Shown: positions 31,416 to 44,685, counted from the stretch's first letter. The stretch is DNA of 64,000 nt from Gemmatimonadota bacterium (GCA_028873695.1 JAPPNU010000062.1:257057-321056), one strand, 5' to 3'. Translations and numbers: made by a program. Notes: generated from the letters alone by a model not told the origin.

Positions 31416-34169
31416 TCAATCCGCTACGTGAATCGTCCAACTGTTGCTGCCACTGTTTTTCGTGGCATGAAAGTTCCACCGCACACCGTTTATGGTGGCA
31501 CCTCTGGCGTCTATACCGGTACCGGCGTTGAAGAACGCGATGGATCCCCTTCCGGAACTGGATACCGAGAAGGTATTGCCCTTGTAGGTACAGGTTCCAC
31601 CGGGATTCACGACCAACCCGGCCCTGCAAGCGCCGCCACTTCCTCCGCCACCCCCGCTGACGGTGACGTCCACGGCGTCAGAGCAGTTGTTGCCGGTGTT
31701 GCTCTCGTCGCTGACGTCGTCAACGCATGCTCCGTAGTAATAGGTTCCGGCGTCCGACGGCGCGTTCAGGCTGATCGATTCGGCGCTTGTGCCCCCCGGA
31801 GACAGGCCGCTCACGGCGTCCGTGCCCACTTCCGTGTCATTTGTCGAGATTGTCGAGTTGGACGAGCGATAGTACCGCAAGGTCGTGGCCGCGGACGAAG
31901 CATTGCCCTGATTGCGAACCGTAGCGCTCAGCGTGAACGACTGTCCGGTTGTCAGCGTGTTGTCGTCCACCGAGGGTGACTCCACGATCAGGTCCGGACT
32001 GCTTCCGCTACTTCCGCCTCCTCCGCCATTGCCACTGTCAGTTCTTACTTCAACCCCTCGACGCTGAAGGGCTGGAACGTGCGTGTTGAGCGACATGCTG
32101 CTCAATGGATTGCCTCGAATATTAACGAAATCCCCTTCACCCAATCCCGTGTTTGCCACCAATGGTGAGATATCCGAGATGTTATTATCCCAGAGGTTCA
32201 GCCTTTTCAGCATCGTCAAGATTGAGAGGGCGGAGATATTCGAGATGGTCTGGTTTCCGCCAAGATGTAGTTCCGTGAGGTCTCTCAAGTTCGAAAGCGC
32301 GGAAATGGACGAGATGCGGTTCGAGGTAAAATTCAGGTATGTCAGATCGGTCAGGCGAGAGAGAGGTGCGAGGTCAGAAACATCGTTGCCGTTGACCCAC
32401 TCGCCATCCACCCATCCACGACCAAGGCTCAGCCGTGTCAGATTCGTCAACTTGGAGAGGTCGGAAATTTCCGAGATACGAGTGTTATATAGATACAGTT
32501 CCGTGAGGTTGCTCAGTTTGGAAAGGGCGGAAATGTCAGAGATGCTGTTGTTACCGAGACTCAACTCTGTCAGGTTCGTCAAATTGGAGAGGGCGTTAAT
32601 GTCCGAGATGCCGTTGTTATATAGGTACAGGACTGTGAGGTTGGTCAGGTTGGAGAGGGCGGAAATGTCCGAGATGCTGTTGGTGCTAAGCGCCAGGTAT
32701 TCCAGGTTGGTCATGCCGAAGAGGGGTGAGATTTCCGAGATGTTATTATCCCAGAGGTTTAGCCGTGTTAACATTGTCAGGTTGGAGAGGGCGGAGATAT
32801 TCGAGATGGTCTGGTTTCCACCAAGATGCAGTTGCGTAAGGTTGGTCAAATTCGAAAGCGCGGAAACGGACGTGATCCGGTTCCAGGTAAGATCGAGGAT
32901 CGTCAGGTCGGTCAGGCGAGAGAGGGGCGAGAGGTCAGATATGGCATTTCTGTTGACCCACTCGCCATCCACTCTGGCGCGACCAAGGAGCAGCGTTGTC
33001 AAATTGGTGGCATGCTGGAGGCCTGACAAGCTGCGAATTCCCATATTGGGCGCGGCAATTCGCGTCAAGGTCGCCATCTCGCCACGGGTAATCGGATCAG
33101 TGCGCTTCTTGCCCAGACTATCTGCAATCACAGCACGCAAGTTGTCATCCGCAATGGTCACAGTGGCGCCTCCGCCACCCGTGCCGGAGGACGGAACCTC
33201 ACTGCCAAAGGCGCCGGCGAAGATCAGAAAGTCAGAAAGGGCGACGGCCCCGTCTCCATCCAGATCGAAACGCGCTTCATACCGCGCATCGCCCTGGCTT
33301 GACCCGAAGCTGCCCGCGAATGCCAGAAAGTCTGAAAGGGAGACCGTGCCGTCGCCGTCGAAATCCGGCGACGCTGAGCCCGCAGCGTTAAACGTGATGA
33401 CGCTGCGGGTCGCGAGGTCATCGGACGAGGTGGCGCTTTCTGCAATCGTGACTCTCTCGACGCCGATGGAAAACTCTCTGCCCGTGACGTCTGCAGCCGT
33501 CTCAAACTCCGCGCGCGCCAGGAACCCGGATCGCGCCAGCGTGACAGGCGTCGTCGAGGCGAGGTTGACGCCGACCGACCCCTCCGGAATCGAAAGGCCG
33601 AAGGCGCTGTTTTCAGCCTTGACGTAGGTCACGAGAGAGGGGTCGAAGTCGAACCTGATCACTACGCCGCGCAGGGACGTCGTGACCCCTGTGGCGAATA
33701 CCTCGATGGCAATTATCGTGCCGCGTCCTTGCACGGCGCCCGTGGTCACGCCGTCGTCCCTCTGGTTGCCTGCCCCGCCGTCGGCGATCAGGTCCAGCGA
33801 CAAAACTGCGTTTGCATTGTTGCCCAGGGCGACCTTCGCGGCCCATTCGGACGACGGGCCATGGGGCGTGTCGTACTCCACACCGGTCTCCGACTCGTCG
33901 CCGGCGTACGGGTAGGGAGTCGGACCCGTGACTGCATCGGGCGCTGAGAATTGTGCATCCGGAAACGCCCGGAAGGAAAATTCACCAAACCCGATCGCGC
34001 CGTCGCGTTCGAAATCGGGAGAGGACGCCGTCTCGTCGCCGATGGCGTTGACGGTGACTCCAGGTGCAATTGCGTCGCCTCCGGCAAAATTGGCATCAAT
34101 TACGGCGTGGCACACCACTGCCAGCAGTGTGATGGTGCCAATACGTGTGATAGCTCTCGATAGAGACAT
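31416..34169 (-). CDS. Secreted cohesin-like / dockerin-like / long LRR / CARDB / conserved C-terminal module protein
   Basis: GGGAGG then ATG at 34169. Signal MSLSRAITRIGTITLLAVVCHA. Cohesin-like GTIIAIEVFATGVTTSLRGVVIRFDFDPSLVTYVK...GFLARAEFETAADVTGREF. Dockerin-like DFDGDGTVSLSDFLAFAGSFG...FDLDGDGAVALSDFLIFAGAFG. About 20 LRRs. CARDB-like PDLIVESPSVDDNTLTTGQSFTLSATVRNQG...TYYYGACVDDVSDESNTGNNCS. C-terminus ...GVRWNFHATKNSGSNSWTIHVAD. Confidence 0.8.
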   Translation of the reverse strand: MSLSRAITRIGTITLLAVVCHAVIDANFAGGDAIAPGVTVNAIGDETASSPDFERDGAIGFGEFSFRAFPDAQFSAPDAVTGPTPYPYAGDESETGVEYDTPHGPSSEWAAKVALGNNANAVLSLDLIADGGAGNQRDDGVTTGAVQGRGTIIAIEVFATGVTTSLRGVVIRFDFDPSLVTYVKAENSAFGLSIPEGSVGVNLASTTPVTLARSGFLARAEFETAADVTGREFSIGVERVTIAESATSSDDLATRSVITFNAAGSASPDFDGDGTVSLSDFLAFAGSFGSSQGDARYEARFDLDGDGAVALSDFLIFAGAFGSEVPSSGTGGGGATVTIADDNLRAVIADSLGKKRTDPITRGEMATLTRIAAPNMGIRSLSGLQHATNLTTLLLGRARVDGEWVNRNAISDLSPLSRLTDLTILDLTWNRITSVSALSNLTNLTQLHLGGNQTISNISALSNLTMLTRLNLWDNNISEISPLFGMTNLEYLALSTNSISDISALSNLTNLTVLYLYNNGISDINALSNLTNLTELSLGNNSISDISALSKLSNLTELYLYNTRISEISDLSKLTNLTRLSLGRGWVDGEWVNGNDVSDLAPLSRLTDLTYLNFTSNRISSISALSNLRDLTELHLGGNQTISNISALSILTMLKRLNLWDNNISDISPLVANTGLGEGDFVNIRGNPLSSMSLNTHVPALQRRGVEVRTDSGNGGGGGSSGSSPDLIVESPSVDDNTLTTGQSFTLSATVRNQGNASSAATTLRYYRSSNSTISTNDTEVGTDAVSGLSPGGTSAESISLNAPSDAGTYYYGACVDDVSDESNTGNNCSDAVDVTVSGGGGGSGGACRAGLVVNPGGTCTYKGNTFSVSSSGRGSIAFFNAGTGIDARGATINGVRWNFHATKNSGSNSWTIHVAD

Positions 34170-44685: not shown

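Follow-up and report, generated by a model that had tools for sequence, protein, structure and literature searches.

Mosaic paralogues with cohesin-like and dockerin modules point to whole-module exchange at glycine-rich linkers in a protein family of Latescibacterota-type bacteria

The 64,000-nucleotide stretch of DNA analysed here (Gemmatimonadota bacterium, GCA_028873695.1, JAPPNU010000062.1:257057-321056), to which we refer throughout as the window, carries on its minus strand two genes, gene 1 at 31416-34199 and gene 2 at 42247-44685, whose products share both ends and have unrelated centres. Judged from the alignments, these are two intact paralogues in a lineage-specific multigene family of modular signal-peptide proteins, new members of which arise by the exchange of whole modules at glycine-rich linkers and by occasional short conversion tracts, and no fewer than four separate events set the two genes apart. 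We regard as fairly probable a wider reading, in which such a module-swapping family of paralogues couples a cohesin-dockerin assembly unit to swapped ligand-binding centres.

When the two genes were compared with 1 kb of flanking sequence, blastn returned two ungapped matches, both at E = 0, and no match between the two centres was found by either blastn or tblastn. The shared segments are given below, with synonymous divergence (dS) between the two genes estimated by the Nei-Gojobori method.

31416-31997, minus strand: shared 3' block, gene 1 copy (gene 2 copy 42247-42828); 582 nt, 94.2% identity, 34 mismatches, dS 0.19
33183-33840, minus strand: shared 5' block, gene 1 copy (gene 2 copy 43852-44509); 658 nt, 88.3% identity, 77 mismatches, dS 0.33 over the whole block
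33665-33839 and 44334-44508, minus strand: first ~175 nt of the 5' block; 95.4% identity, dS 0.16, apparently homogenised by conversion
Other 473 nt of the 5' block, minus strand: 85.6% identity, dS 0.42

A preliminary description of the region had reported two near-identical blocks around unrelated centres, and the blastn identities together with the unalignable centres bear this out. Its estimates by eye of an identical run of about 135 nt and of 85-90% identity in the 5' block lie close to the measured values, the longest identical run being 134 nt (31747-31880, equivalent to 42578-42711, within the 3' block); its count of about two dozen differences in the 3' block was too low. The repeated blocks of the two genes lie 10.7 kb apart. 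Aligned block by block, the genes show mosaic similarity rather than uniform divergence, and the recombination breakpoints sought at the block edges are sharp and located in Gly-rich linkers such as SG(T)GGGG. At the 5' edge of the 3' block, 30-nt windows with 13-37% identity give way to windows with 93-97%; identity stays at 87-100% inside the block, except for one hypervariable window at 67%, and the similarity ends exactly at the stop codon; in the 5' block it drops from about 80% to about 30% within the Gly-rich linker that follows the dockerin. Breakpoints are also reused, position 33183 being the end of the 5' block both against gene 2 and against the orthologue of gene 1.

The product of gene 1 consists, in order, of a signal peptide, an N-terminal extension, a cohesin-like module, a dockerin, leucine-rich repeats (LRR), a CARDB domain and a tail, and that of gene 2 of a signal peptide, a cohesin-like module, a dockerin, two central modules that we call cenA and cenB, a CARDB domain and a tail.

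31416-34199, minus strand: gene 1, open reading frame (ORF) of 927 aa from TTG at 34199; the likely start is ATG at 34169 (917 aa), as in the database version, P0057
34092-34169, minus strand: gene 1, predicted Sec signal peptide MSLSRAITRIGTITLLAVVCHAVIDA, read from the sequence by eye
33384-33830, minus strand: gene 1, cohesin-like module; family hidden Markov model (HMM) 253 bits, fold evidence from the gene 2 copy
33186-33371, minus strand: gene 1, dockerin with two F-hand calcium-binding loops (Pfam, profile, family HMM)
32025-33167, minus strand: gene 1, centre, an LRR array of about 13-14 internalin-type 22-aa repeats counted by eye
31680-32000, minus strand: gene 1, CARDB (PF07705, 53.0 bits, cut-off 22.7)
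31419-31649, minus strand: gene 1, Gly linker and C-terminal tail domain of about 70 aa, all-beta
42247-44685, minus strand: gene 2, 812 aa (P0001)
44053-44499, minus strand: gene 2, cohesin-like module (AlphaFold 2 [AF2] model, Foldseek, family HMM)
43855-44040, minus strand: gene 2, dockerin (profile, family HMM)
43171-43830, minus strand: gene 2, centre, cenA; 220 aa (residues 286-505) with four conserved Cys
42850-43170, minus strand: gene 2, centre, cenB; 107 aa (residues 506-612)
42511-42831, minus strand: gene 2, CARDB (PF07705, 54.1 bits, cut-off 22.7)
42250-42480, minus strand: gene 2, linker and tail domain

At these lengths neither gene is the giant of the preliminary description, and the roughly 20 LRRs given there come down to 13-14. 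The array itself scores well above threshold (LRR_4 159.9 bits against a cut-off of 27, with LRR_8 also called by Pfam) and holds an internal 561-nt duplication (32164-32447 vs 32725-33008, 82% identity). The cohesin-like modules of the two genes are 87% identical in amino acid sequence. The centre of gene 2, first described as about 330 aa of unrelated sequence, does fail to align with gene 1, but it is not one unit: it is made of two discrete modules, each of which turns up at other positions in further proteins of the family. For cenA, Pfam at E <= 10 gave only a weak Ig-like match and a profile search of PDB sequences gave FN3 matches at E ~0.2, and its second half is possibly FN3-like; cenB and the N-terminal extension of gene 1, searched as isolated modules, had no Pfam match at E <= 10. 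That extension contains a single F-hand-like loop, SPDFERDGAIGFGEF, at residues ~58-80 (34092-34036 region) and resembles the leader and first dockerin half of neighbouring proteins that begin with a dockerin (tblastn 40-46%); the 5' end of gene 1 may itself be a fusion product.

The history of the pair can be read against the orthologous locus, which is present at about 95% identity in two independent assemblies, L001 (GCA_964551635.1) and L002 (a Logan contig). The orthologue of gene 1 in L001 (o1) keeps the head from residue 54 as well as the CARDB and tail, has a signal peptide different from that predicted for gene 1, and carries four NHL-type repeats where gene 1 has its LRR array, so that a search of a related metagenome-assembled genome (MAG) for other central cassettes did find one. 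The orthologues of gene 2 in L001 and L002 (o2 and o2b) retain the signal peptide, the head and cenA, whereas cenB is absent; their CARDB is 84% and their tail 30% identical to the corresponding parts of gene 2, and o2b has an additional NHL insert. Over the whole 5' block dS is 0.15 between gene 1 and o1 and 0.13 between gene 2 and o2; over the 3' block it is 0.20 between gene 1 and o1 and 0.21 between gene 2 and o1. In all shared blocks the ratio of nonsynonymous to synonymous divergence (omega) is 0.05-0.2, a sign that these blocks are under purifying selection.

The two parts of the 5' block group differently. Among informative sites in its first 175 nt, four group by genome and two by orthologue, while in the other 473 nt none groups by genome and 40 group by orthologue (Fisher p = 9e-5 for the contrast); the two L001 paralogues are 97.1% identical over the same first 175 nt. 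Because the grouping switches within the block, the pattern speaks for a conversion tract where the cohesin-like module begins. The sites of the 3' block form a star (19/19/14); the 3' end of gene 2 accordingly came out of the gene-1 lineage, roughly when the lineages split, and since the orthologues of gene 2 carry the other CARDB and the divergent tail, this end was replaced separately by a gene-1-type copy. The 134-nt tract that is identical between genes 1 and 2 differs from o1 at six sites, and because a run of this length is also improbable under permutation of the variable sites (p ~0.005), it points to a short conversion at a later date. There is therefore support for two short gene-conversion tracts, in agreement with the preliminary description, which had proposed gene conversion with exchange of the central domain; that exchange between conserved ends is likewise supported by the mosaic and by the alternative centres of the orthologues. 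The events were also called recent, and here the dates disagree: with dS of 0.42 over most of the 5' block and 0.19 over the 3' block between the genes, against 0.13-0.15 between orthologues, the main events are approximately as old as, or older than, the lineage split from L001. Nor does one duplication suffice, the 5' and 3' blocks having different histories.

Arranged in order, the events that distinguish the two genes are an early duplication of the cohesin-dockerin head, the subsequent homogenisation of its first ~175 nt, the replacement of the 3' end of gene 2 by the gene-1-type CARDB and tail, together with the insertion of cenB, and, still later, the ~134-nt identical tract. Swaps of LRR for NHL repeats and of signal peptides are also visible against the orthologous locus. 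Either the GGN-rich linker DNA or selection for domain boundaries would have kept such exchanges in frame, and the GGN repeats may have provided microhomology.

The head common to the two proteins was studied with a profile of 30 aligned family copies and an AF2 model of gene 2 residues 51-285. The model, with a predicted local distance difference test (pLDDT) score of 82.8, has ten strands in residues 21-159 followed by two helices (177-186 and 210-219). Searched against the PDB with Foldseek, it retrieved cohesins as 19 of its 20 top matches, at probability ~1.0 and template modelling (TM) scores of 0.55-0.67 (target), with the CipA Coh9-X-DocII fragment (3kcp/4fl4) at the very top; the N-terminal module is accordingly predicted to have a cohesin fold, by definition a nine-stranded jelly-roll beta-sandwich of about 140-150 aa. 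In the profile search of PDB sequences solved dockerins came first (4wi0_B at 2.4e-10 and 2y3n_B at 1.8e-9, then 5k39_B and 2b59_B; the dockerins extend to 1.3e-6, with both F-hand repeats covered), calmodulins stood behind the top dockerins at ~3e-6, and no cohesin was matched. The loops DFDGDGTVGFPD and DLDGDGSVAFSD form two tandem F-hand calcium-binding loops of the 12-residue D-x-D-x-D-G...D kind, each followed by a helix in the model. The presence of a cohesin-like and a dockerin-like module in the same chain, already proposed in the preliminary description, is supported because the predicted fold matches cohesins and the profile matches solved dockerins, the cohesin lying outside the Pfam sequence model.

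The tail domain is also modelled with confidence (pLDDT 91.6, all beta) and has a conserved C-x-G-L-V-V-x-P-x3-C hairpin. It gave no fold match in the PDB (Foldseek, best E 0.42), no significant match to PDB sequences by profile, and, at E <= 10 in Pfam, one insignificant match (SUN, E 0.11). A C-terminal domain of the type IX secretion system (T9SS) and a known lectin fold were rejected as identities for the tail, given that Foldseek found no PDB match. A homologue search with the tail profile returned 17 unnamed ORFs of 68-137 aa that offer no hint as to function, long family members being evidently unsampled there.

Beyond the window, a homologue search with gene 2 returned 429 proteins at E <= 1e-5, the few named ones being 'hypothetical protein [Gemmatimonadota bacterium]', and module-wise BLAST was applied to the best 120 of these 429 matches. 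The family is built of signal peptide, cohesin, dockerin, cenA, cenB, CARDB, tail, LRR and NHL/LDL-B propellers, and the same seven modules recur in many orders across it. With cohesin and dockerin written Coh and Doc, examples are Coh-Doc-CARDB-cenA-cenB, Coh-Doc-CARDB-cenA-tail, Coh-Doc-LRR-CARDB-tail (the arrangement of gene 1, found also in P0028, P0029 and P0041) and Coh-Doc-CARDB-tail alone. In the best 120, cenA is reused in 48 proteins; cenB, which the gene 2 orthologues lack, is the C-terminal module of several family proteins. An exhaustive profile search gave 141 representative clusters at E <= 1e-30, and the heads of 255 collected proteins include 155 of the form Coh-Doc, 20 Coh-Coh-Doc and one Coh3-Doc.

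A scan of one genome per species found the family almost solely in MAGs titled Candidatus Latescibacterota, many of them closed chromosomes of 5-6 Mb, and also in RHO1/RHO2 bins titled Gemmatimonadota; one closed chromosome has at least 10 family loci among the best 80 kept. The one match labelled outside these two groups, on a 2,115-bp contig (L074, JAPOQD010000107.1) binned as Halieaceae (APA_bin_75), is probably mis-binned. On these matches, the family of at least 400 proteins is essentially confined to Latescibacterota-labelled MAGs, and the source organism of the window is an uncultured Latescibacterota-type bacterium, the relatives of which look to be associated with sponges. The RHO and APA bin names match sponge species sampled by Robbins et al. 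2021 (PMC8163846), a study that found sponge-associated Latescibacterota to be rich in all classes of eukaryote-like repeat (ELR) and called the way in which ELR proteins reach the host unresolved; GARS Latescibacterota MAGs are the subject of another paper (PMC12993501). Cohesin, dockerin and CARDB are never mentioned in these two papers, and the literature on sponges, Gemmatimonadota, Latescibacter and Poribacteria yielded nothing relevant on dockerin or cohesin.

Genes 1 and 2 lie within a cluster of about 28 kb (18.3-46.7 kb). Family HMMs applied to a six-frame translation of the cluster found two cohesins, in genes 1 and 2 only, and six dockerins, which belong to genes 1 and 2, two WD40 proteins (at the C terminus), an LRR/zincin-like protein and a protein with four CARDB domains.

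19350-21731, minus strand: dockerin (21147-21329), LRR and a weak leishmanolysin-like region (tblastn, Pfam, family HMM)
21740-24382, minus strand: WD40 propeller protein with a C-terminal dockerin at 21746-21919 (Pfam, family HMM)
24345-27061, minus strand: signal peptide, dockerin (26726-26911) and about four CARDB; split into two overlapping ORFs
29971-31415, minus strand: family debris directly downstream of gene 1
34877-37417, minus strand: WD40 propeller protein with a C-terminal dockerin at 34886-35053 (Pfam, family HMM)
44839-45753, minus strand: gene upstream of gene 2, with a FlgD_ig-like domain and a T9SS type A sorting domain (TIGR04183, 26.2 bits, cut-off 23)

The split gene with four CARDB domains has, relative to its intact L001 orthologue, a 1-nt deletion near 26330 and an in-frame 3-nt deletion at ~26153, and is either a pseudogene or the result of a sequencing error. 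The debris contains a signal-peptide fragment (31317-31397), a family C-terminal module (30313-30582) and a tail-like fragment (30159-30262), with non-coding-looking sequence between leader and C-terminal module; its leader, MLAFRKAMICI, matches both the leader of the orthologue of gene 1 and the start of the ankyrin gene (41036-41131). Signal-peptide-like N termini stand at the start of most cluster proteins, and Pfam further identifies an ankyrin (ANK) protein, a protein with ankyrin repeats and two FGE-sulfatase domains, and a met-zincin. Across the 20 cluster and flanking proteins scanned, Pfam detected LRR, WD40, CARDB, ANK, FGE-sulfatase and zincin-like domains and no glycoside hydrolase (GH) or carbohydrate-binding module (CBM).

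In this arrangement the cohesin-fold module and the calcium-binding dockerin would act as an assembly unit, by which the proteins could dock onto each other and onto the dockerin-only neighbours with their WD40, LRR and CARDB modules. Adaptor scaffoldins of cellulosomes link scaffoldins or enzymes through a cohesin and a dockerin (PMC12484212); by analogy, the family may represent a cohesin-dockerin assembly of eukaryote-like repeat proteins, and the adaptor function or head-to-tail polymerisation suggested in the preliminary description is a reasonable inference. The exchangeable centres (internalin-type LRR, NHL propeller, cenA/cenB) would be the ligand-binding parts, probably facing an animal host or other cells, with CARDB as a stalk. 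In its most specific form, which we put forward tentatively and consider rather doubtful, the proposal is of a non-cellulosomal cohesin-dockerin system in Latescibacterota, in which Coh(1-3)-Doc adaptors assemble LRR, WD40, NHL and CARDB-stalked binders into extracellular or surface complexes and cassette exchange tunes them to host or microbial ligands.

Several observations weigh against the coupling of module exchange to assembly and ligand binding. Pfam Cohesin (PF00963) matched neither the whole proteins at E <= 0.01 nor the isolated module at E <= 10, and Pfam Dockerin_1 (PF00404), at 21.2 bits for gene 1 and 19.0 bits for the gene 2 module, falls below its cut-off of 22.9, as does NCBIfam dockerin_GC (16-18 bits against 29). 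An extracellular location of the two products is putative, because the host cell is presumably diderm and no signal for export across or anchoring in the outer membrane was found: genes 1 and 2 have no T9SS C-terminal sorting domain (TIGR04183/TIGR04131 type, E <= 0.1), no lipobox, and no SLH or sortase signal in Pfam or NCBIfam. The genome probably does have a T9SS, since the gene at 44839-45753 passes TIGR04183. The sponge origin on which the host side of the proposal draws comes from MAG names and the literature on the phylum, not from the metadata of the window. The short spacing within the head, the confidence of its joint model and the uniqueness of the arrangement in gene 2 count on the same side, and each of these bears on a particular alternative.

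Only ~6 residues separate the last cohesin strand from the first calcium loop, the joint Coh-Doc model has a predicted TM score (pTM) of 0.67, and cohesin and dockerin are almost always adjacent (155 of the 255 proteins), all of which would suit a self-contained unit in cis, the dockerin folded back on its own cohesin as the structural head of ordinary secreted or periplasmic binding proteins. We think this unlikely, though far from negligible: members with Coh-Coh-Doc and Coh3-Doc heads have the two modules at unequal stoichiometry in one chain, and four proteins in the same cluster have a dockerin without a cohesin of their own. The exact order cenA-cenB-CARDB-tail of gene 2 was seen in no other database protein among the best 120 of the 429 family matches, and a 134-nt exact repeat and blocks of 88-94% identity at 10.7 kb distance are what a chimeric or collapsed join through repeated sequence would need. 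Such an assembly artefact has very little probability, since the 3' copies differ at 34 sites, mostly synonymous, with both ORFs intact, synteny with L001 and L002 holds on either side of the segment replaced in gene 2, so that two compensating misjoins would be required, the combination of head and tail in gene 1 is reproduced in an independent MAG, and Coh-Doc-LRR-CARDB-tail recurs in three further proteins.

The remaining alternatives concern the mode and tempo of change. If genes 1 and 2 were plain old paralogues without recombination, whose ends were merely more constrained than their centres, the low omega of all shared blocks would be accounted for; yet synonymous divergence differs about 2.5-fold between adjacent sub-blocks, the phylogenetic signal changes partway through the 5' block, the centres differ in fold (LRR vs non-LRR) and are not diverged copies, and the orthologues carry other 3' ends. 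Contradicted by both block-wise dS and site patterns, this account is scarcely credible. At the other extreme stands programmed high-frequency variation of the pilE/pilS, vlsE or MgPa type, with silent cassettes copied into expressed genes, for which one may cite the conversion tracts, the promoterless module fragments adjoining gene 1 and the short tail-only ORFs on other contigs. We find it very improbable, because dS of 0.16-0.42 places the events far back, at ages comparable to lineage splits, neither gene is truncated and each has a start codon and a signal peptide of its own, the fragments near gene 1 look degraded, and at the junctions there are only Gly linkers, with no recombinase or dedicated repeat seen. 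A diversity-generating retroelement also finds no support, there being no reverse transcriptase among the scanned ORFs in a search that was not exhaustive.

Other features of the cluster deserve record. The gene at 27340-29970 (minus strand) encodes 876 aa with a signal-peptide-like N terminus, ankyrin repeats and two FGE-sulfatase (formylglycine-generating-enzyme-like) domains, an unusual fusion. Directly downstream of gene 2, and of both its L001 and L002 orthologues, is an ORF of 135 aa (41296-41703, minus strand) with a hydrophobic N terminus and a lipobox-like AYAC, no match in Pfam or NCBIfam, and a possible role as a conserved partner. In L001 the orthologue of gene 1 directly follows this ORF, and its leader is the one found in the window at the head of the ankyrin gene; comparison of window 41002-41131 with L001 5514-5628, taken with window position 34036, shows about 7 kb (ankyrin, zincin and WD40-dockerin genes) that is extra in the window or lost from the MAG, with a breakpoint inside a signal-peptide coding region. 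Two paralogous NTase-HEPN fusion genes, at 17435-18259 and 46833-47882 (both minus strand; 905 nt, 84%, direct orientation), bracket the cluster; they may be the markers of an island or provide a substrate for recombination.

A 25-nt motif, GCCTGGTGTCGCAAAACGCTACAGT, occurs in three identical copies (27156-27180, 38724-38748 and 42020-42044, all minus strand) where none is expected by chance. The copies are embedded in longer upstream or intergenic segments, 83-90% similar, that belong to three genes of the cluster; a core of the motif is kept at orthologous places in L001 and L002, and the copy downstream of gene 2 is within an inverted repeat, TGTCGCA-N24-TGCGACA. The motif could be a shared promoter or operator. 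Elsewhere in the window, 6487-6565 matches 49098-49136 and 63839-63877 as 39-nt inverted matches (90-92%) in distant intergenic places, perhaps copies of a small dispersed repeat element. Scans of the window for Rfam families and tRNAs found nothing.

Among known systems, the closest likeness is to the adaptor and primary scaffoldins of cellulosomes, of which Clostridium thermocellum CipA (Coh9-X-DocII, 3kcp/4fl4) and Acetivibrio cellulolyticus ScaA are solved examples. The family resembles them in having one to three cohesin-fold modules and then a two-F-hand, calcium-binding dockerin in one secreted chain, with dockerin-only partner proteins encoded nearby, and the cohesins and dockerins of these scaffoldins are its top structural and profile matches. 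A single cohesin with a dockerin is the architecture of Ruminococcus flavefaciens ScaC. Unlike a cellulosome, however, the cluster proteins scanned showed no sign of a GH, a CBM, an SLH module or a sortase motif, the payload consists of LRR, WD40, NHL, CARDB and zincin-like modules, and every chain with a cohesin has a payload of its own besides the CARDB and tail. The host is a presumably diderm bacterium of the FCB group and not a Gram-positive anaerobe, and the cohesin sequence is too distant for detection by Pfam Cohesin. Non-cellulosomal cohesins, reportedly surveyed by Peer and colleagues in 2009 along with dockerins, include those of Clostridium perfringens GH84C/GH33 (2vo8, 2jh2, 2w1n) and Archaeoglobus fulgidus (2xdh). 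These are among the Foldseek matches and resemble the present modules in their use outside plant cell wall degradation, but they are single modules on enzymes or toxins, whereas here cohesin and dockerin together make up the conserved head in a combinatorial family that numbers at least 400 and has eukaryote-like repeats as payloads.

The payloads recall the eukaryote-like repeat proteins of sponge symbionts (ANK, LRR, WD40, NHL, TPR), the cluster having ANK and ANK plus FGE-sulfatase proteins of its own. Gene 1 also resembles Listeria internalins, secreted or surface proteins in which an array of 22-residue LRRs likewise precedes an Ig-like domain, internalins A and H being the best NCBIfam matches; at 185 bits it nevertheless lies far below the internalin_A cut-off of 1600 and is not classed as an internalin, and it has no LPXTG or GW anchor and unrelated head and tail modules. 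Families that vary by cassette exchange or conversion include polymorphic toxins, Rhs and CDI systems with orphan modules, Neisseria pilE/pilS and Mycoplasma genitalium MgPa. The family described here shares with them flanks that are conserved, cassettes exchanged internally or at an end, orphan fragments in the vicinity and short conversion tracts; it differs in that the variable part is central and consists of whole folded domains of different folds, in its evolutionary time scale, and in having neither a toxin/immunity pair nor a single expression site.

In families of surface proteins, domain shuffling and gene conversion are ordinary and known mechanisms, and the locus offers a clear natural case of modules exchanged in frame at Gly-rich linkers, with events of different ages that can be dated against the orthologous locus. 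What appears new is the cohesin-dockerin head on eukaryote-like repeat proteins, a class to which a role in the interaction of symbiont and host in sponges is ascribed; we did not find the combination described in the literature searched. If binding in trans does occur, the reach of cohesin-dockerin assembly would widen to include a Gram-negative animal symbiont and payloads that are not enzymes, and the presentation of eukaryote-like proteins by a symbiont would become testable with the six dockerins and two cohesins of a 28-kb cluster. Should the assembly reading be correct, it would supply a concrete display mechanism for the eukaryote-like proteins of symbionts, and the family may assemble host-interaction proteins in the way that cellulosomes assemble enzymes.

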